From Planctomycetota bacterium (GTDB lineage Bacteria; Planctomycetota; SZUA-567; H5-PLA8): a DNA stretch of 64,000 bases. The stretch spans positions 160,001-224,000 of the forward strand of contig JBBRPR010000004.1 of the NCBI GenBank assembly GCA_038227875.1, given 5' to 3'. Of this stretch, positions 28,095 through 38,289 are shown piece by piece; the stretch's first letter is position 1; each line of letters starts with the position of its first letter. Position numbers and translations under genes: made by a program. A model generated the notes under the pieces. The model was not told where the DNA came from and did no database searches. It saw only the letters and a program-made list of their open reading frames with translations.

Positions 28095-29171
28095 TCAGCC
28101 GAGATCGATCTTCTGCCGCCAGCCGTACGGGTCAGGCAGCACACCGAATTGAATATCAAGCAACTGCTGGCGCAATTGCATCGTGAACGTGCCGGGCTTG
28201 TCGCCGGCGTTGCGGTACATCACTTCGCCGTTGTGAAGAATTTCGCGGATCGGCGTGATCGCCGCAGCGGTCCCGCAGGCGAAGGCTTCCTTCAACGCGC
28301 CGGATTTGAAGGCCGCGGTCAGTTCATCGGTGGATATCGCGCGTTCTTCGACCTTGCGCCCGGCCGCGCGCGCCAGCTTCAGCAGCGAATCGCGCGTGAC
28401 GCCCGGCAGGATCGTGCCCGACGAAATCGCGGGCGTGACCAGCGTCTCGCCGATCACGAACATGATGTTCATGCCGCCCATCTCTTCGATGTGCTTGTGT
28501 TCCTTGGCGTCGAGCCACACGACCTGGTCGAAGCCTTCCTTGTTGGCCTTGCCCTGCGCCGCCAGCGACGCGGCATAATTTCCGCCGCACTTCGCCGCGC
28601 CGGTTCCGCCGGGGGCCGCGCGGGTGTATTCCGTCTCGGTGCGCAGCCGCACGCCGCGCGGATCGCTGGCGCCAAAATAATCGCCGACCAGGGAGACGAT
28701 GGTGAAGAAAATGTACGTCGACGACGGATTGACCTTGATCACCGCGTCGGTGCCGATCATGCAGGGACGGACGTAGAGCGTCATTGGGCGCGCCGGCAGT
28801 TCGGCCTTGTCGGTCTTGATCAGCCGCGCGATCTCCGCGATGGTCTTGGCGCTGTCGACCTGCGGCATGCACAGCCGCGTGGCCGATGAATTCAAACGCG
28901 CGATGTTGGCGTCGGGGCGGAACATCGCCGCGGAGCCGTCGGGCTGGCGGTAGACTTTGAACCCTTCGAAAATCTCCTGACCGTAGTGAAATACAACGGC
29001 CGACGGCGGCAGCGTGAACGCGCCATACGGAATGATTTCCGACGGCCCCCACGCGCTGTCCTGATAGCGCTGCACCAGCATGTGCGGCGTAAACACTGCT
29101 CCAAAACCAGGGTTGGATTTGTCTGCCATTGCTACGGTCTCCGTTTCGGTGTCCCACGTCTTCCAGTTCAC
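28095..29171 (-). CDS. ilvE: Branched-chain amino acid aminotransferase
   Basis: FHYGQEIFEGFK, FRP..N..R, AKCGGNYAAS, EEMGGMN, ILPGVTR, GTAA. Confidence 0.95.
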   Translation of the reverse strand: MNWKTWDTETETVAMADKSNPGFGAVFTPHMLVQRYQDSAWGPSEIIPYGAFTLPPSAVVFHYGQEIFEGFKVYRQPDGSAAMFRPDANIARLNSSATRLCMPQVDSAKTIAEIARLIKTDKAELPARPMTLYVRPCMIGTDAVIKVNPSSTYIFFTIVSLVGDYFGASDPRGVRLRTETEYTRAAPGGTGAAKCGGNYAASLAAQGKANKEGFDQVVWLDAKEHKHIEEMGGMNIMFVIGETLVTPAISSGTILPGVTRDSLLKLARAAGRKVEERAISTDELTAAFKSGALKEAFACGTAAAITPIREILHNGEVMYRNAGDKPGTFTMQLRQQLLDIQFGVLPDPYGWRQKIDLG

Positions 29172-29263
29172 AATTTACCACACGCTTTCCCATGCAGCAC
29201 GGACTTTCTGAGCCGCCGTGGGGCGAACGCATTTTCTGCGCGGAAAATCCGCGCGCAGCGTTC

Positions 29264-30358
29264 TCACCACTGATGTTTCGGATTCTGCCGGTGCATCTTG
29301 TTGATCTTGCGCCAGCGCTCCTTTTCGGCGCGCGCGGCACTGGCGTCGACGCGGCGGTTCTGCCAGGCCAGTTCGCGTTTCTGCTTGATGTAGCTCTCGT
29401 AACGCCCGGCATCCAGAGTGCCGGCATCGAGCGCCGCCTTAATCGCGCAACCGGGTTCGGTTCTGTGGAGGCAATCGCCGAAGCGGCACGCGCTGATCAG
29501 CCGTTCGATTTCCTCAAACGTCTGCACGACCGATTCGCCGCCTGTACTTGCGGTGGCCGCGAGCCCCAGTTCGCGCATCCCGGGCGTGTCGATGATCATC
29601 GCTCCGCCGGGAAGCTGGACGAGCTGGCGATGCGTAGTGGTGTGTTTGCCGGTGTCGTCGTCGCCGATCGCGCGCGTAACCAGCAGTTGTTCTCCGGCCA
29701 GGCGGTTGACGAGCGTGGATTTGCCGACGCCCGAGGACCCGAGCAGTACGCACGTTTTTCCCGGGACGAGGTAGGGACTCAGCGCGTCCAGACCCATGTT
29801 GGCCTGCGCGCTGAGCGTCAGAATTTTCACCGCGTGAGCGATCGCGGCGACATCCGCCATCGCCGCGGCCGCTTGACTGGCGTCGGCGCAGAGATCGGCC
29901 TTGGTGAGCAGCACGACCGGCTCCGCGCCGCTCTCCCAGGCCATCGTCAGGTAGCGCTCGATGCGCCGCGGATTGAAATCGCGGTTGAGCGAACTGACGA
30001 TGAACGCCGTGTCGACATTCGCCGCGACGATCTGATCGCGGGCGGTGTTGCCGACTTCCTTGCGCCGGAATGCAGTCATGCGTTTCAGACAGCGCTGAAT
30101 CGTGGCGCGGCGTTCATCGAGTCGTGCGGAGATGCCGACCCAGTCGCCGACCGCCGGAGGTTCAGCGCCGAGTTCCACTTCATGGCGCATGCGCCCGGAA
30201 AGTTCGGCGAACAATTCGCCGCTCTCTCCGAGGACGCGGTAGCTGTTGCGGTGGCCTTCACTGACCCGCGCGAAGGAAAGCGTGCGGTGTTCTTCGGGTT
30301 CGACTTGATTGGCAAAAAAATCGATCCAGCCCAGCGCGTTCAATGTTTCGGAATGCAA
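29264..30358 (-). CDS. rsgA: Ribosome small subunit-dependent GTPase A
   Basis: Circularly permuted GTPase TKAD, GSSGVGKST, GKHTTT, DTPGMR, with Zn motif CRFGDCLHRTEPGC. TTG start with GGAGG RBS. Confidence 0.93.
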   Translation of the reverse strand: MHSETLNALGWIDFFANQVEPEEHRTLSFARVSEGHRNSYRVLGESGELFAELSGRMRHEVELGAEPPAVGDWVGISARLDERRATIQRCLKRMTAFRRKEVGNTARDQIVAANVDTAFIVSSLNRDFNPRRIERYLTMAWESGAEPVVLLTKADLCADASQAAAAMADVAAIAHAVKILTLSAQANMGLDALSPYLVPGKTCVLLGSSGVGKSTLVNRLAGEQLLVTRAIGDDDTGKHTTTHRQLVQLPGGAMIIDTPGMRELGLAATASTGGESVVQTFEEIERLISACRFGDCLHRTEPGCAIKAALDAGTLDAGRYESYIKQKRELAWQNRRVDASAARAEKERWRKINKMHRQNPKHQW

Positions 30359-30395
30359 AGTGAAATCCTCCGGCGCGAGGCTTCGTGACGAAGCG

Positions 30396-30428
30396 TCAGC
30401 GCAGCGAATCACGACGCAGGCGGGACAT
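30396..30428 (-). CDS. Putative leader peptide MSRLRRDSLR upstream of rsgA
   Basis: atg tcc cgc ctg cgt cgt gat tcg ctg cgc tga, inside a hairpin-rich leader. Confidence 0.5.
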   Translation of the reverse strand: MSRLRRDSLR

Positions 30429-30668
30429 GGCATCATGTCCACGCGCCAGTGCGCGTGTTACGGTGACCGGGTAGCCGGTGCCGGAGGCGTTAAAAACTAT
30501 CGCGGGAAATTGGGGCGGATCTAGCGATACGTCTGAACGCGGACGGCACCGGTGGTAACGAAATCAAGATTGCTCATATCTGGGCCCTCCGCGCTGCGAA
30601 GCGGGTCATCCGTTCGCTTAAGGTCCAATCAATCACGTGAAAGAGGGGTTGTCAAATTTTTTGGCCGA

Positions 30669-30699
30669 CCAATTGTCGCGACAGTGTCGCGACAATTGG
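30669..30699. repeat. 31-bp palindrome
   Basis: ccaattgtcgcgaca-g-tgtcgcgacaattgg. Confidence 0.75.
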
Positions 30700-30730
30700 G
30701 GATCCTCGTGATTTTTTCAAACACTGATGA

Positions 30731-30885
30731 TGGTGCCACGGATGCACGAAGCCCAGAGCGTAGCGAAGGGCTTCGTTCATCCGTGCGTTGCGCATAGCCA
30801 AGCGCGGTTTCGGCATGCTCGGGTCCAACGCACGGATGAACGGATGCTTTCGCTACGCTCAAGCCTCCGCGCATCCGTGGCACCA
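30731..30885. repeat. Inverted doublet (REPIN-like) of a 56-nt structured repeat
   Basis: Copies at 30731-30786 (+) and 30830-30885 (-), with 15-bp perfect terminal IR tggtgccacggatgc. Confidence 0.85.
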
Positions 30886-31010
30886 GGAAAACAAATGTTC
30901 AAGCTCTATCCGCAAAATGCCGATGAAAGCATGTGCGGAGGTCCTGTCGGTGGGACGTGGGGGCGTCCAGACGCTTCGCACTGCGGCTTTGCTTGACGCT
31001 TTGGATCACC

Positions 31011-32399
31011 ATGGCTCAACTTTCGATCAAACTCCTCTGCATCCCGTGTGTGCTGGCCGCGGTGTTGTTCATGTCGCGCGCCAGTGGCGCGGATCTTGGC
31101 GCGGAAGTCGTCGACACACCGAGCGCTGAAAGTACGTCGGTCAGCGCATTGCCCAACGAACCGGCGCCGCCTCCGCCCGCTCCGGAAGAACCGCCGGCGG
31201 AAATCATTCCGCTGCCGCCGTCCAAACGCAGTCTCGAGCAATCCAAGCCCAGCCCCGCGCCGAAAGTTGAGAAAGCGGAGAAGGCCAAGAGCACTCCGAC
31301 TGAAACCAAGACGGACCCGAAGTCCGAGATCAAGCCAGAGAAGATGGAGCCGGCTACTCCAAACAAAACCATCGCCAGCGAAGCGCGCAAGCCGTCCGCA
31401 AATTCCTGCTACTTGAAGCCCGCGGAGCCGGGATATCCGACGGTGCTCTCGGGAACGCTCACAGAAGATCTGGAACTCACGCCGCAAATGTCGCCGGTGC
31501 TGATCAGCGGGACGTTCATCGTGCCGGAAAAGATCAAGCTTACGATCCAGGGCGGCACGCTGATCCGGCTACGCGGCGATCCGCAGGGCGTGAAGGCTCC
31601 CGGCGCGCCGGACCCGACGCAGAGCGCCGTGGTGTGGATCTGGGGCACGCTCACGACCAGCGGCGCGACGGGCAATCCCGTTGAGTTCGTGAATCTGGAG
31701 AAGGCCGACGGTTCGCTGCTGCTTTACGGCACGAACGACTGCAAGCTCGATGGAGTCCGCCTCAAAGGCATGAACGTCGCGCAGAGCGGCGGAACGGCGC
31801 TGTGGACGAACTGCGAATTCGTGGGCAGCGGCTCGTACGCGATGGCGGCCGGCGCGGGCGTTTTCACGCAGTGTACGTTCCGGCGCTTCGGCGGCATCTT
31901 CGCGACGTACGATGTCGCGCCGTGGTCGCTGCTGGTGCGCAAGAGCTTGTTTGAGCGCTGCCGCGAAGGCATCATCCTCGGCAGCAACCCCGGCGAAGCG
32001 CGGCTGATCGTCGAGAAGAACCATTTCATCGGCACGCAGGGCGCTCACATCCGCGCGCTGCCGCTGTCAAAAGGCAAGGCCACGGCCAGTGCCGCCGACG
32101 GCAAGAAGCCCGAAGACATGGAAGTGCTGATCGGCGAGAACTGGTACGGCACGTCGATCCCAGAAGAGACCGACCTGCGCATCGTCGACCGCCGCAACGA
32201 CCCATCGATCCACGCGCGCCTGAACACACGCCCGCCCGCGAACGCGCCGTACGGGAACATCGGCGCGGGGATGAAGGTGGCGGTGCTGGAAGCGACGGCG
32301 AAGGAACAGCAGAGCGCCGTACAGAAACTGCTGCAGGCGCAGGCCGCCAAGCAGAAGCTGAACGCTCCGGCGCGGCAGGTGGCGAAGAAGGGTACGTAG
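31011..32399 (+). CDS. Exported protein with Pro/Lys-rich linker and probable right-handed beta-helix
   Basis: Signal peptide, low-complexity region, LTIQGGTLI..., G.L...GA.GNPVEF and ENWYG motifs. Confidence 0.7.
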   Translation: MAQLSIKLLCIPCVLAAVLFMSRASGADLGAEVVDTPSAESTSVSALPNEPAPPPPAPEEPPAEIIPLPPSKRSLEQSKPSPAPKVEKAEKAKSTPTETKTDPKSEIKPEKMEPATPNKTIASEARKPSANSCYLKPAEPGYPTVLSGTLTEDLELTPQMSPVLISGTFIVPEKIKLTIQGGTLIRLRGDPQGVKAPGAPDPTQSAVVWIWGTLTTSGATGNPVEFVNLEKADGSLLLYGTNDCKLDGVRLKGMNVAQSGGTALWTNCEFVGSGSYAMAAGAGVFTQCTFRRFGGIFATYDVAPWSLLVRKSLFERCREGIILGSNPGEARLIVEKNHFIGTQGAHIRALPLSKGKATASAADGKKPEDMEVLIGENWYGTSIPEETDLRIVDRRNDPSIHARLNTRPPANAPYGNIGAGMKVAVLEATAKEQQSAVQKLLQAQAAKQKLNAPARQVAKKGT

Positions 32400-33453: not shown

Positions 33454-33645
33454 CTCTTGAACGACTACCGAGAGGATTCATCGCTCCGCAAGATCACATC
33501 CCTCCGCATAAAATAGTCTTTCCCTCTTCTGTATCACATATAAAATAGTTTTTGATTGTGTTGAGACACTTTCGAGTGACTCGGGCCAATTGGTCCACGT
33601 CACTCGGCTATGCGTTGTGTTTCCGTGAACTACCGGAGAACACCT

Positions 33646-36600
33646 ATGCCCGTGAAATGCAGTCACTGCAACCGGCTGACGCCCGAGGGCGTGCTCTGTC
33701 AGTTTTGCGGAGAACGGTTGGCGGCGCCGGTGGACTGTCCCGGGTGCAAACGCAAGCTCCCGGCGGGTACACAGAAATGCCAATACTGCGGTGCGCAGGT
33801 CGTCGCGGTCAAGCCACCGGATTTGATTCCCTGCCCGAAATGCGGCAAGAAAATGGGTCCGCATCTCAGCGCGTGTGTAATGTGCGGCGCGGCGCTGCCG
33901 CGGCGGCAGCCTCAAGCGGCACAACCCGCACAGGCCGCACAGCCGGAGCAGGCAGCGCGGCCTCCGCAACCGGTGGCGCCTGCGTCACAATCTCCGCAGG
34001 CGGCGCTCATGGCGGAAATTCAAGGGATGCTGCAGGACGCCAACAAGCTCATGCACGCCGGAAAATTTTCCGACGCGCTGCCGCTGCTCGAGCACGTGCT
34101 GATCCTGAATCCGGCGCTGGCCAACATCTGGCACGTCAAGGCGACGTGTTTGCTCAATCTCGCCCGCTACGCGGAAGCGGAGAGCGATTACCGCCACGCG
34201 TTGAAGTTGAATCCCGATAGTTTCGACAGCACGCACGGCTTCGCGCTGTGCCTGCGCGAACTGGGGAAATACGACGAGGCGCTCCCCGCGGCGCTGGTGT
34301 TGATGATGAGCAAGCCTAACGTACCGGACTTCGCCAACCTCGCCGGATTCTGCTACCTGAAGCAGGGGCGCATCGACGAAGCGTTGCGTTTTCTAAAACA
34401 GGCGATCGATGCCCAGCCCAATCGAATCTCCTATTGCATCGACTACGGGCTGGCTCTGCAGATCGCGCGAAAGCAGAGCGACGCGGATGCGTGCTTTGAG
34501 CGCGCTTCGAATCTCGACCCGATCAGCGCCCGGCCAAATTTCTATCGCGCGACGCGGCTGGAACGCGCCGGCAAGTTGCCGGACGCGGCGGAATTTTACT
34601 ACCGCGCCTCCGTGGGCTTCATGATCGAGCAGCGCAAAGCTCCGCTCGGCGCGCAGATCGCCAGCGAATGCGCGCAGGCGCGTGACGGCATGAAGCGTTT
34701 GAAGGCGCATCTCCCGCGCATCGCCGAGGCGGGGCCGATGTTCGCCGAAGCGGTGAAAGCGGAAGGCAGCGGCGAGATCAATGAAGCACTCGCGATGTAC
34801 GAGGAAGCCGCGGTGCTCGACCCGGACAATGCCAAAGCGCTGGAGGGTGTCGTCCGCATGCGCAAAGCACGAGCGGAAGCAGGCCGCGCGCCCCAGCCGC
34901 AAGCGCCTCGCCCCGCGCCGACGCCGGCTCAAGCCGCGGCACCCGTTCAGCCCGCACCGTTTGAGCCGGAGGGTTTGCTGCGCGAGGGCCTCGAATTTGA
35001 ACTCGCGGGCCAGAAAGAGAAGGCGCTCGACTGCTACGGCCGTTATCTCGCCAACCCGCCGATGCAACGCGAAGCACTCAACTTTGCGCGGCAGCATCTG
35101 GCGCAGATGATCGAAAGCCTGCGTCCGCCGCGCGTGAAGCCGCCGCCATCGCCGGCCTCGGCATTGCTGGATCGCGCGTCGGGCCTCATTGGCAAGCAGC
35201 AGTACCAACAGGCGGTCAGTGTTTACGACGAAGCGCTGGAACTGGATCCCAACAGCATCGTCGCGTGGCTGAACATGGGCGCGTGCCTGGATCAGCTCGG
35301 CAGGCCTGAAGACGCGATCAAGTCCTTTGATCGCGCGACGGTGATTCTCCCAAAGATGGCCGGCGTGTGGCTGATGCGGGCGACCAGTCTGAGCGCGCTC
35401 AGGCGCCACGAGGAGGCGCTGCGCGATCTGGACAAGGCATTACAGCTCGATCCGTACGAAAGCCCGGCGTGGTGCAACAAGGGCAGCTGCCTCAATGCGC
35501 TCCACCGTACCGACGAAGCGCTGAAATGCCTGGAACGCGCCGTGATCCTGGAGCCGTTTAATCTGATCGCCTGGTTCAACAAAGGCTGCTCGGAACGGAC
35601 GCTGGGAAAGCGGGACGCGGCGATGGCGTCGTTCAAGCGTTTCCTCGCGCTCGCGCCGCAGGGCGTGGAAGACATGGTCGAAGATGCGCGGCGCATGCTC
35701 AAAGAGCTGGAAAGCGGCGAGTCCCGCCCCACGCACCGCGAACAGACGTTGAAGCTTCCCGCCAAGCCGCAGGAAATCATCGGCAACTACGAGATCTACA
35801 AGGAGCTCGGTCGCGGCGGCATGGGCGTCGTCTACCTCGCGGTGACCCGCGACCACGAAGAAGTCTGCGCGCTGAAGACGTTCCTCAACCCGACGGATAC
35901 CGCTGCCGTCGAAGCCTTCAAGCGTGAAGCAAAAACGTGGATCGATCTCGACCGCCATCCGAACCTGGTCAGCGCGTTTTACGTCGATGAACTCCGCGGC
36001 CGGCTGTACGTGGCGGTGGAATTTGTGATGCCCGGCCCGGAAGGATTGAACTCGCTAGAAGGATATCTGCGCTCCAGTCCGCCGGGTGTCAACCAGGCGC
36101 TGCGCTGGTCGATCCAATTCTGCCACGGCATGGAATACGCGTACACCAAGGGCATTCGCTGCCACCGCGATATCAAGCCGGCGAACATCATGATCGACTG
36201 GCAGAAGAATCTGAAGATCACGGACTTTGGACTCGCCGCGGCGATGTCCTCCTCGGCCGACGGCCAGACGCAGCTCAACTGCCGCGGCGGCGCGGTGGGG
36301 CTTTCCGTGCACACGGAAGGCGGCGGCGCCGGCACGCCGACGCACATGCCGCCGGAACAGTGGCGCAGCGGGAGCGCCTGCGACGAGCGCAGCGACATCT
36401 ACGCCTTCGGCATCACGCTCTACCAGATGGCGGCGAAGGGCAAGCTGCCGTTCCTGGCGCCGATGCCGAAGGACGATTCGCCGCAGGAATACCAGCGCTT
36501 CATGGTTCAGATGTACCAGTTGCATTGCGCTGAGACGCCGAAGCAGCTGGACTCGATCCTCTGGCCGCTGATCGAACGCTGCACGCAGAAGGATCCGGCG

Positions 36601-38289
36601 AAGCGCTTCCAGAGTTTCCGGCAACTGCGCTACGAACTGGAAACGCTCTTGAAAGGCCAGGCGCAGGGCGAGACCGTCGCCGCACCCACCGTCGGAAAAC
36701 TCGATCTCAGCGAACGCGTCAACAAGGCGTTGAGCTTCGAGGCGCTCAACCGGTTCGACGACGCGATGAAGCTTCTGGAGGAAGCGCTGAGCGAGGAACC
36801 GAATCATGGCCCCGCGTGGGAGGCCAGGGCGCACACGCTCGACGGCATGGGTCGGACCGACGAGGCGTTGAAAGCGTGGGATAAGGCGGTGGCGCTTGAT
36901 CCCCGGTCGGCCAACGCGCAGATGAACAAAGGCAGTGCGCTGCTCCGGGCCGGGCGCGTGCCGGAGGCGCTGGCGTGCTACGACCAGGCGCTGGCGGTGC
37001 GGCCGAATTTCGCCGTGGCGTGGCGCAACAAGGCGCGCGCGTTCCTTAAGCTCAACCGCGACACCGATGCACTGGCGTGCAACGAAAAAGCGCTGTCGCT
37101 GGAACCGGAGATCGCCATCAACTGGAAGGAGAAGGGCGACACGCTGCGGCTGCTGGGCCGCCACGCCGAGGCGGTGGAGTGCCTGGCGCACGCCGTGAAA
37201 CTCGATCCGGCCAACGCCGACGCGTGGAACCTGCTGGGCGAATCGCAGATCGCGCTGCAGCAATTCGAGGCGGCGCTGCAGAGCCTCAACACGGCCGTGC
37301 GCCTGGATCCGCGCAACTATGCCGCGTGCGTCAATCGCGGCGGATGCCTGACGCGCGCCGGACGCCTGGCCGACGCGATGGCCTGCTTCGACACGGCCAC
37401 CACGTTGATCGATAAGCCGGCGATGGCGTGGAACAACAAGGGCGATCTGTATGTGCGCCAGAAACAGTTCGACAAGGCGCTGGAATGCTTCGACCGCGCG
37501 CTGGAGTGCGATCCGGATCTGGAACTGGCGCTGCATAACAAAGCCCAGCGCCTGCGCGATCTGGGGCGGCTCGACGAGGGACTCGCCTTGCTGGAGCGAG
37601 GCCTGACCGTGCATCCGAAGTCGTCGATGCTCTGGTATTTCAAAGCCGAATTCCTCAAACAACAGCAGCAATTCTCATCCGCGATCCTGGCGTACAAAAA
37701 GGTGATCGAATTCGAGAAAATCAACACGCGGGCCATCGGACTGGCGTGGAGCCACAGCGGCGAATGCAGCGAGAAGATGGGCCAGTTCGGCGACGCGCTG
37801 GTGGCGTACGGCAAGGCGCTGCAAATCATTCCGAATTCCATCGACGCGGCGGAAGGCGCCGAGCGCTGCCGGCGCAAAGTTCAGGGCGGAGCGGCCGGCA
37901 CCGTCGCGACGACGAAGCATTCGCCATCGGTCGACGCGTGGTTGCAGAAGGGGCGGAAATTCGTCGACGAAAAACGATGGATGGACGCGGTTACCTGTTA
38001 CACCGAAGCGCTCGATGAGGATTCCAACTGCGCCGAGGCGTGGTGTGAGCTGGGGCGGGCGCTGGGTGTGCTGAAGGAGTATCCCAAGTCGATCATCTGC
38101 CTGAAGAAGGCCCTGGTATACGCACCGAATTCGCCGGCGATCTGGCTGAACAAGGCGATGGCCGAAGATGCCTCGGGCCTGCACGCCGACGCAGTGGCCT
38201 CGTACAAAAAGTTTGTGTCGGTGGCGACGCCCGATCTGGCGCGGCACGTGGAACACGCAAAGACGCGGCTTGCCGCGCTCGCGCGTTAA
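33646..38289 (+). CDS. Zinc-ribbon / TPR / Ser-Thr kinase / TPR multidomain protein
   Basis: Six CxxC at the N-terminus, kinase motifs GRGGMG, ALK, HRDIKPAN, DFG, GTPTHMPPE, and many TPRs on both sides. RBS GGAGA. Confidence 0.92.
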   Translation: MPVKCSHCNRLTPEGVLCQFCGERLAAPVDCPGCKRKLPAGTQKCQYCGAQVVAVKPPDLIPCPKCGKKMGPHLSACVMCGAALPRRQPQAAQPAQAAQPEQAARPPQPVAPASQSPQAALMAEIQGMLQDANKLMHAGKFSDALPLLEHVLILNPALANIWHVKATCLLNLARYAEAESDYRHALKLNPDSFDSTHGFALCLRELGKYDEALPAALVLMMSKPNVPDFANLAGFCYLKQGRIDEALRFLKQAIDAQPNRISYCIDYGLALQIARKQSDADACFERASNLDPISARPNFYRATRLERAGKLPDAAEFYYRASVGFMIEQRKAPLGAQIASECAQARDGMKRLKAHLPRIAEAGPMFAEAVKAEGSGEINEALAMYEEAAVLDPDNAKALEGVVRMRKARAEAGRAPQPQAPRPAPTPAQAAAPVQPAPFEPEGLLREGLEFELAGQKEKALDCYGRYLANPPMQREALNFARQHLAQMIESLRPPRVKPPPSPASALLDRASGLIGKQQYQQAVSVYDEALELDPNSIVAWLNMGACLDQLGRPEDAIKSFDRATVILPKMAGVWLMRATSLSALRRHEEALRDLDKALQLDPYESPAWCNKGSCLNALHRTDEALKCLERAVILEPFNLIAWFNKGCSERTLGKRDAAMASFKRFLALAPQGVEDMVEDARRMLKELESGESRPTHREQTLKLPAKPQEIIGNYEIYKELGRGGMGVVYLAVTRDHEEVCALKTFLNPTDTAAVEAFKREAKTWIDLDRHPNLVSAFYVDELRGRLYVAVEFVMPGPEGLNSLEGYLRSSPPGVNQALRWSIQFCHGMEYAYTKGIRCHRDIKPANIMIDWQKNLKITDFGLAAAMSSSADGQTQLNCRGGAVGLSVHTEGGGAGTPTHMPPEQWRSGSACDERSDIYAFGITLYQMAAKGKLPFLAPMPKDDSPQEYQRFMVQMYQLHCAETPKQLDSILWPLIERCTQKDPAKRFQSFRQLRYELETLLKGQAQGETVAAPTVGKLDLSERVNKALSFEALNRFDDAMKLLEEALSEEPNHGPAWEARAHTLDGMGRTDEALKAWDKAVALDPRSANAQMNKGSALLRAGRVPEALACYDQALAVRPNFAVAWRNKARAFLKLNRDTDALACNEKALSLEPEIAINWKEKGDTLRLLGRHAEAVECLAHAVKLDPANADAWNLLGESQIALQQFEAALQSLNTAVRLDPRNYAACVNRGGCLTRAGRLADAMACFDTATTLIDKPAMAWNNKGDLYVRQKQFDKALECFDRALECDPDLELALHNKAQRLRDLGRLDEGLALLERGLTVHPKSSMLWYFKAEFLKQQQQFSSAILAYKKVIEFEKINTRAIGLAWSHSGECSEKMGQFGDALVAYGKALQIIPNSIDAAEGAERCRRKVQGGAAGTVATTKHSPSVDAWLQKGRKFVDEKRWMDAVTCYTEALDEDSNCAEAWCELGRALGVLKEYPKSIICLKKALVYAPNSPAIWLNKAMAEDASGLHADAVASYKKFVSVATPDLARHVEHAKTRLAALAR

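Follow-up and report, generated by a model that had tools for sequence, protein, structure and literature searches.

A candidate uORF-dependent attenuator in the leader of an accessory RsgA paralog from a Planctomycetota bacterium

Described attenuators and the rsgA2 leader

The attenuators of ermC/ermD, cat-86 and cmlA contain a Shine-Dalgarno (SD)-led leader ORF, a paired segment within that ORF, a sequestered gene SD, and helices that are mutually exclusive. Such uORF attenuators mark genes that are induced when translation fails, and erm, the ARE-ABCF genes, hflXr, and topAI are understood in this way. The leader of the accessory RsgA gene described here (rsgA2), which lies in a 64,000-nt stretch of Planctomycetota DNA (the window), had the same list of parts. 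The differences were in the peptide and the geometry. The motifs IFVI, IAVV, and RLR were not conserved in the rsgA2 uORF, and the strand freed from the uORF was the anti-SD itself; stalling of a ribosome on the paired codons would thus shut the SD of the gene. Induction of rsgA2 would need an arrest before codon ~5, unlike the geometry of erm/cat.

The nearest working analogue was toiL/topAI, with its short uORF, structured 5′ region, and occluded ribosome-binding site (RBS). In the available part of the report on toiL of the E. coli topAI-yjhQ leader, 5′ base-pairing occludes the main RBS, ribosomes stalled on the uORF change the pairing, tetracycline stalls ribosomes at the uORF start codon, and Rho terminates transcription as a consequence of repressed translation (PMC12121999). 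Neither leader would need a dedicated arrest motif. The two leaders are unrelated in sequence, and the gene controlled is a ribosome GTPase in one case and a toxin-antitoxin pair in the other. Rho takes part at toiL (PMC12121999) and would be a hypothetical factor at the rsgA2 leader. Unlike toiL as described in that part, the rsgA2 uORF appeared to contribute its own SD to the switch.

The rli80 leader of Listeria hflXr combines an intrinsic terminator with an RLR peptide, as given in the available part of PMC6310831, and the background that the first-pass annotation had offered on HflXr and the RLR motif matched this source, which also covers rli80. The two loci were alike in that an extra ribosome-GTPase paralog, and not the housekeeping one, stood under a uORF leader that senses ribosomes, putatively so for rsgA2. 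In contrast to rli80, RLR (+x+), the motif of conserved leader ORFs of the ErmDL/MsrD/rli80 type, was present only in a non-conserved ORF of the rsgA2 leader, and no intrinsic terminator of the rli80 or vmlR type was found between the uORF and the gene in the window (minus strand, 29900-31200). Tetracycline induces one RsgA paralog of S. coelicolor via WblC/WhiB7, according to the portion of PMC7157823 that was available. This paralog, SCO6149 (RsgA/EngC), responds to a translation inhibitor whereas the second RsgA of the species does not, a division of roles that rsgA2 may share, and it differs in being controlled by a transcription factor (PMC7157823). It is the only outside support for the antibiotic induction and the rescue function that the first-pass annotation had supposed for RsgA2. 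In the literature, supplements aside, no paper was found that connected a leader peptide, a uORF, attenuation, or Term-seq with RsgA, and our best reading of the rsgA2 leader is a so far undescribed uORF-dependent translational attenuator.

The rsgA2 gene and its conserved leader

Domain searches with the rsgA2 product gave 170.8 bits for PF03193 (cut-off 30) and 155.6 bits for TIGR00157 (cut-off 100), and RsgA chains in the PDB were matched with a best E of 1e-33; the scores with the stricter equivalog models PRK12288 and PRK12289 were far under the cut-offs of those models. The translation contained, in order, TKAD, GSSGVGKST, DTPG, and CRFGDCLHRTEPGC. The first three are presumably the permuted G4-G1-G3 motifs, and CRFGDCLHRTEPGC is taken to be the C-terminal Cys/His zinc motif. 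On these sequence matches, the product is assigned to the RsgA/YjeQ circularly permuted GTPases.

Two rsgA copies above the Pfam cut-off were present in the assembly (9.3 Mb, 88% complete). The other copy, a second rsgA that the first-pass annotation had suggested looking for, was located on contig C14 and encoded a protein of 439 aa with a basic N-terminal extension and 35% identity to the window copy. RsgA of the C14 type was found in 15 of the 16 other family genomes. The window type was found in only 6 of these 16 (and in 14 of the 62 genomes of the class, G000 included), short of the presence in nearly all family genomes that marks a core-type copy. Because of this distribution, the window RsgA is identified as an accessory paralog rather than the housekeeping core copy of the lineage, and the earlier proposal that it is not the housekeeping protein was borne out. 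Relatives of RsgA2 with 40-50% identity occurred in many phyla, including Bacillota, Acidobacteriota, Actinomycetota, Planctomycetota, Nitrospirota, and cyanobacteria. Closer orthologs were sought in metagenomes, where none of 80 loci exceeded 50% identity, and therefore no sequences were added for covariation.

The rsgA-like reading frame was open as far as 30442 and contained an in-frame ATG ATG at 30437-30432. TTG 30358 was nevertheless the best start call, since homologs aligned from residues 30-34 of the longest frame and GGAGG was placed 8 nt ahead of this codon; the TTG start of the first-pass annotation was thus retained. The coordinates of the gene and of the leader elements are listed in Table 1.

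Table 1. Position and basis of the features of the rsgA2 locus, in window coordinates
Feature	Coordinates	Strand	Basis or remark
-35 hexamer TTGACA of the putative leader promoter	30650..30655	minus	sequence; 17 nt upstream of the -10
Extended -10 TGaTTGATT, putative	30627..30635	minus	conserved in family orthologs
uORF Shine-Dalgarno GGAGGG, 7 nt ahead of the ATG	30585..30590	minus	7/7 family orthologs
18-codon uORF MSNLDFVTTGAVRVQTYR + TAG	30521..30577	minus	7/7 orthologs, 4 genera
P1 5′ strand, uORF nt 26-34 (codons 9-12), CCGGUGCCG	30544..30552	minus	register scan, covariation
Anti-SD CCUCCGGC	30480..30487	minus	exact complement of 30374-30367
P1 3′ strand CGGCACCGG	30475..30483	minus	shares 4 nt with the anti-SD and 5 nt with the first hairpin
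G+C-rich hairpin domain (four hairpins), between anti-SD and rsgA2 SD	30380..30479	minus	folding
Hairpin ACCGG-ctac-CCGGT	30479-30466	minus	sequence
Hairpin CACGCGC-actg-GCGCGTG	30457-30440	minus	sequence
Hairpin GGACATG-atgc-CATGTCC	30440-30423	minus	sequence
Hairpin GCTTCGT-c-ACGAAGC	30394-30380	minus	sequence; probably 6 bp closing a 3-nt loop
ORF MSRLRRDSLR (ATG..TGA), probably a chance ORF	30396..30428	minus	without SD, ATG within a stem
rsgA2 SD region GCCGGAGG	30367..30374	minus	sequence
rsgA2 (accessory RsgA paralog, 364 aa, TTG start)	29264..30358	minus	PF03193, TIGR00157, PDB matches

Downstream of the rsgA2 stop, the interval 29172-29263 (minus) contained an 8-bp hairpin, CTGCGCGG-atttt-CCGCGCAG, without a U-tract. 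The next gene, 28095-29171 (minus), encoded a class IV aminotransferase (PF01063, 111.6 bits). An operon of rsgA2 with this gene was considered and dropped, as the linkage was seen in none of the other 172 loci. On the other strand, 33610-38289 (+) encoded a 1559-aa protein with a Ser/Thr protein kinase domain and many TPR repeats.

An analysis of the region just 5′ of the leader revealed TGn followed by TTGATT, TTTAGT, or TTAATT in six of the seven family orthologs, and TTGACA, TTGACT, or TTGCAA was found at the -35 position. These elements point to a putative sigma-70-like promoter for the leader; a strict consensus promoter scan did not call TTGACA 30655-30650. The -35 was closely preceded, at 30669-30699, by an inverted repeat of 15 perfect bp, CCAATTGTCGCGACA c TGTCGCGACAATTGG. 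It was unique in the genome, was absent from the orthologs, and had 11 nt missing in the close natural DNA variant X4. This palindrome might serve as an operator, or it might terminate the unit that lies upstream.

The 18-codon uORF was the sole SD-led short ORF common to all seven family orthologs, so that the conserved SD-led ORF expected upstream of an attenuated gene was present in 7 of 7. It was situated ~90 nt farther upstream than the ORF MSRLRRDSLR, which the first-pass annotation had named as the leader peptide. A leader peptide before rsgA was therefore supported, but as the frame 30577-30521 and not as MSRLRRDSLR. GGAGG(G/A) preceded the uORF ATG by 6-8 nt in every ortholog, and the length was fixed at 18 codons across the four genera; the peptides diverged, and Gly10 alone was invariant. 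No known arrest motif was conserved in the 18-codon peptide, and RLR was absent from it in the seven family orthologs. The seven leaders also had in common a 5′ hairpin and a G+C-rich spacer of 121-179 nt before the rsgA2 SD. By the same uORF criteria, the core RsgA copy had such an ORF at 0 of 10 well-anchored loci and at 1 of 11 overall, and a profile of the uORF region found no second copy in the rest of the genome. An RNA-library contig from a relative (X7) spanned 30270-30509, outside the uORF, and could be DNA; contig X5 did not cover the uORF.

In a second family of the same class, L008 and L122 had a homologous uORF of 15-16 codons, MS(A/T)IV(V/L)V(A/C)G.., before rsgA2. The uORF of L122 started with TTG, and therefore scans for ATG alone undercount such leaders.

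Helix P1 and the alternative states of the leader

The first-pass annotation had listed four hairpins, a pairing of TCGTGA with TCACGA, and a complementarity of the anti-SD with the rsgA SD. All of these were found on the minus strand at the positions given, where CCTCCGGC (30487-30480) paired perfectly with GCCGGAGG (30374-30367). The GCTTCGT/ACGAAGC hairpin was read as a 6-bp stem with a 3-nt loop because a loop of 1 nt is impossible. Folding of the 147 nt from 30490 to 30344 gave a minimum free energy (MFE) of -62.5 kcal/mol; shuffles averaged -49.3 kcal/mol (z -3.5), and none of the 200 was equally stable. In this MFE structure, the anti-SD:SD helix enclosed three of the four hairpins. The whole 282-nt leader also folded with a z of -3.5, a value to be read with the unreliability of folds of 300-nt G+C-rich RNA in mind, and the anti-SD:SD helix belonged to the MFE when the uORF was absent or masked. 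An anti-SD helix of the 8 bp seen in the window was attained by 58 of 2000 shuffles. The leaders of the orthologs also had the structured domain, with different sequence.

On the earlier claim that the anti-SD helix controls rsgA, the orthologs differed. The exclusive SD-sequestering helix was strong in the window, where it formed part of the MFE, and in only one other genus (g7, represented by L012 and L010), but it was no better than chance in L006, L005, L007, and L009. The variant X4 had lost 2 nt, both from within the CACGCGC/GCGCGUG hairpin loop, and had F6L in the uORF; the deletion and the substitution were compatible with the switch model described below and are no test of it. A search of Rfam over 29000-32000 with E up to 1 gave no credible match, the two hits being chance hits to microRNA families (21 bits versus cut-offs of 70 and 81), and no match was obtained at the gathering score for 20 related loci.

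A 9-bp helix, P1, connected the uORF with a strand 19-46 nt past the uORF stop across the orthologs. When all 49 of the 9-nt windows of the uORF were scanned for their register, the peak was at nt 26, where 7 of 7 sequences had at least 8/9 pairs; the next two registers reached 6 and 5 sequences, and the others 0-4. Of the 63 cells of P1, 93.7% were paired, and in four of the nine pairs both partners had changed (C-G/G-C; U-A/C-G/A-U; G-C/U-G; G-C/U-A). Covariation scored 0.254, compared with 0.062 in shuffles (1/500). Sliding the partners by 1-3 columns left 27-53% paired and no double changes. For these statistics the stretch was trimmed before alignment with MAFFT, the whole-leader MAFFT alignment having misaligned the P1 3′ strand; they draw on 7 sequences from 4 genera, the same sequences from which the helix was derived. 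A segment of the uORF was thus one strand of a conserved helix, as in the known attenuators.

After the P1 3′ strand came the tract 30461-30474. Its equivalents in L005, L006, L007, and L009 were G-free and C/U-rich over 13-22 nt within leaders otherwise rich in G+C, and the tract was weak in the window. Its possible roles include a second anti-SD, a site for Rho loading, and a standby site for ribosomes.

The P1 3′ strand overlapped the anti-SD by 7 nt in L012/L010, whose anti-SD:SD helix was GUUCCGCUU : AAGCGGAGC. Because CGGCACCGG overlaps both the anti-SD helix and the first hairpin in the window, P1 excludes the two of them there. The free energies of the forced P1 and the forced anti-SD states were -108.7 and -104.8 kcal/mol in the window, -141.8 and -144.5 kcal/mol in L012, and -142.8 and -145.2 kcal/mol in L010. 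The states thus differed by 2.4-3.9 kcal/mol and were near-isoenergetic. In the forced anti-SD state, the uORF SD paired with nt 29-42 of the uORF, and therefore both ribosome-binding sites were predicted to be closed; in the forced P1 state, both were open. The helix between the uORF SD and the uORF was significant in no sequence other than L007, where it was marginal (38/1000), and pairwise RNA duplex scans of the leaders were too permissive to inform.

To represent a ribosome on the uORF, its footprint was masked in the folding. In six of the eight leaders, the rsgA2 SD had its lowest (or tied lowest) opening energy when the uORF was empty or when codon 3 occupied the P-site; in five of the eight, most of the tested positions from codon 6 on raised this energy by 1-8 kcal/mol. 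For the window, opening was calculated at 4.9 kcal/mol with the uORF free and at 6.0-8.8 kcal/mol with a ribosome over codons 6-18. The trend was missing or reversed in L006 and L005, and the rsgA2 SD was predicted to be paired in every state.

Since the leader was structured and contained both an SD-sequestering helix and a leader ORF that looked translated, a leader-peptide attenuator was the best reading. With moderate confidence, we propose that rsgA2 has a monocistronic mRNA with a 5′ leader of ~270 nt, that the stretch flagged by the first-pass annotation is the 3′ half of this leader, and that the leader acts as a uORF-dependent translational attenuator and ribosome-sensing switch. The idea of such an attenuator on an accessory RsgA survives, its core now being a different uORF together with a covarying helix; the structured leader, a uORF, and the SD-sequestering helix were found, and the RLR peptide was given up. 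The proposed switch would have four segments, namely the SD region of the uORF (1), uORF codons 9-14 (2), CGGCACCGG with the overlapping anti-SD CCUCCGGC (3), and the rsgA2 SD (4). Pairing of 1:2 and 3:4 would shut both ribosome-binding sites, and pairing of 2:3 (P1) would open both. A ribosome loaded but held at or near the uORF start would keep segment 1 off segment 2, P1 would form, and the rsgA2 SD would be exposed; a uORF without a ribosome would have the same outcome once 2:3 had paired. A ribosome in transit over codons ~5-16 would cover segment 2 and let the anti-SD shut the rsgA2 SD. Early arrest would thus be “ON” and read-through “OFF”, as in the classical four-segment logic, and RsgA2 synthesis would therefore rise under translation stress.

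Two competing explanations rest on what the leader encodes. The first-pass annotation had taken the 10-codon MSRLRRDSLR as the sensor, an ErmDL-like macrolide arrest peptide on which a stalled ribosome would melt the hairpins and free the rsgA SD. The ORF, its RLR motif, and the alternative pairing of TCGTGA with TCACGA do exist, and hflXr is under the control of an RLR leader according to the available part of PMC6310831. However, the ORF had no SD, its ATG lay inside a 7-bp stem, and its conservation among orthologs, which the annotation had made a test of its role, came to one of eight orthologous leaders (seven of the family and a relative from the second family). M..RLR ORFs were found at 15 of the 162 RsgA2-clade loci, but five of these proved to be the C-terminal end of a GNAT gene situated upstream, two were upstream of a putative promoter, and the leftover singletons were about as frequent as on the reverse strand (4/162). 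Moreover, Arg-rich ORFs are expected in G+C-rich DNA. Lacking an SD and most orthologs, MSRLRRDSLR is probably a chance ORF, and its action as an arrest peptide is very improbable. Harder still to credit is that the leader is coding, either because the 18-codon ORF makes a functional micropeptide or because RsgA starts upstream at ATG 30437/30434. The in-frame ATG ATG would permit such a start, but the extension had no SD and was not conserved, the orthologs showing in-frame stops or unrelated sequence, and the homolog alignments began at residues 30-34 of the longest frame. As for a micropeptide, peptide identity between genera was low, whereas the length and the RNA pairing were kept.

The other two explanations accept the uORF and differ in what it does. 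The leader might sense nothing and be constitutive, keeping the TTG-started gene low or stabilising the mRNA, with the uORF unfolding the leader and activating rsgA2 by distant translational coupling in proportion to general translation. The rsgA2 SD paired in every predicted state, the weakly conserved uORF peptide, and the non-ATG starts common in the clade (TTG 57 and GTG 27 of 162) are consistent with this. A passive structure is disfavored because a covarying helix placed exactly on the uORF and alternative states of nearly equal energy exceed its needs; in addition, a modelled ribosome in transit closed the SD rather than opening it in five of the eight leaders. We consider the constitutive leader unlikely. 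The output might instead be transcriptional, with a G-free C-rich tract after the P1 3′ strand serving as a Rho loading site whose exposure is set by the uORF and P1, as in tnaC or toiL/topAI. Such tracts, G-free and C/U-rich over 13-22 nt, followed P1 in four of the seven orthologs (by eye; 8 nt in L012/L010 and 6 in the window), the minus strand of the leader had no intrinsic terminator, and repression of the toiL system leads to Rho-dependent termination in the part of PMC12121999 at hand. The tract of the window, however, was short and contained G, and Rho control is judged quite unlikely here; it and the four-segment switch are mutually compatible rather than exclusive. If the four-segment switch works as proposed, it would give a function to the widespread “second RsgA” and link 30S quality control with the translation-stress response.

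RsgA2 leaders in other phyla

ATG uORFs of 6-30 codons with a strong SD were present at 86 of the 162 RsgA2-clade loci, which come from many phyla; the reverse complement had them at 11 loci, and 19.8 were expected from shuffles. The loci are kin and non-independent, and these figures are counts rather than probabilities. With a stop-to-stop limit, the numbers were 56 loci in the sense direction, 3 in reverse, and 10.0 in shuffles, under a filter that loses some leaders counted as real, including that of L007. The uORF peptides fell into 43 clusters, of which 14 occurred in at least two loci; one of these was an artefact, leaving 13 recurring families. Among them were MIVREVVTG-like 9-mers in Oscillospiraceae (18 loci), MTELxRxxFRxR(L/R/C) and MTTVxxASFTRGPARL in Gaiellaceae, and MTV(F/L)xSIFGxTAFxALA in Tepidisphaeraceae-like loci. 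Terminators were found in the Bacillus and Oscillospiraceae versions of the leader. In two Bacillus loci, uORF codons 13-17 showed complementarity with the uORF SD as well as with the 5′ arm of a terminator farther downstream (by eye), and the roles in the switch seem to be filled there by the uORF SD, codons 13-17, and the intrinsic terminator.

Heuristic SD-guided calls for the 162 loci gave TTG at 57, GTG at 27, and ATG at 78 as the start of rsgA2. The frequent non-ATG starts suggest that rsgA2 initiation is kept weak or IF3-sensitive across phyla. Tentatively, the RsgA2 clade might be a widespread, unrecognised translation-stress factor on the 30S subunit, gated by lineage-specific ribosome-sensing uORFs in many phyla and by WhiB7 in Streptomyces, a view we put forward as a possibility that we do not favor. 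If true, RsgA2 would be the small-subunit counterpart of HflXr and the ARE-ABCFs and possibly an intrinsic determinant of antibiotic tolerance.

The Oscillospiraceae leaders (L076, L088, L095, L098, and others) placed their 9-codon MIVREVVTG-like uORF ~170-390 nt upstream of rsgA2. A long-range helix (GCUAACUGAA.. / ..UUCAGUUAGC) included the last codons and the stop of this uORF in its 5′ strand and enclosed a terminator-like hairpin followed by UAUUUUUG.

Several ORFs resembling RLR leader peptides were set aside. MTRLRRRDYR (L047/L134) was rejected as lying outside the leader because the ORF ended within the leader promoter's putative -35. The MRLR(L/F)xx mini-ORFs before rsgA2 of Pyrinomonadaceae were the last seven codons of an upstream 147-aa GNAT gene, and the family was excluded for this reason. 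In L051, L064, L075, L079, L146, and L152 (Pyrinomonadaceae/Acidobacteriota), this 147-aa GNAT acetyltransferase ended 34-51 nt before rsgA2 (3 nt in L079), an arrangement that suggests a GNAT-rsgA2 operon in these loci, and its final codons, MRLRFED, resembled an RLR leader peptide.
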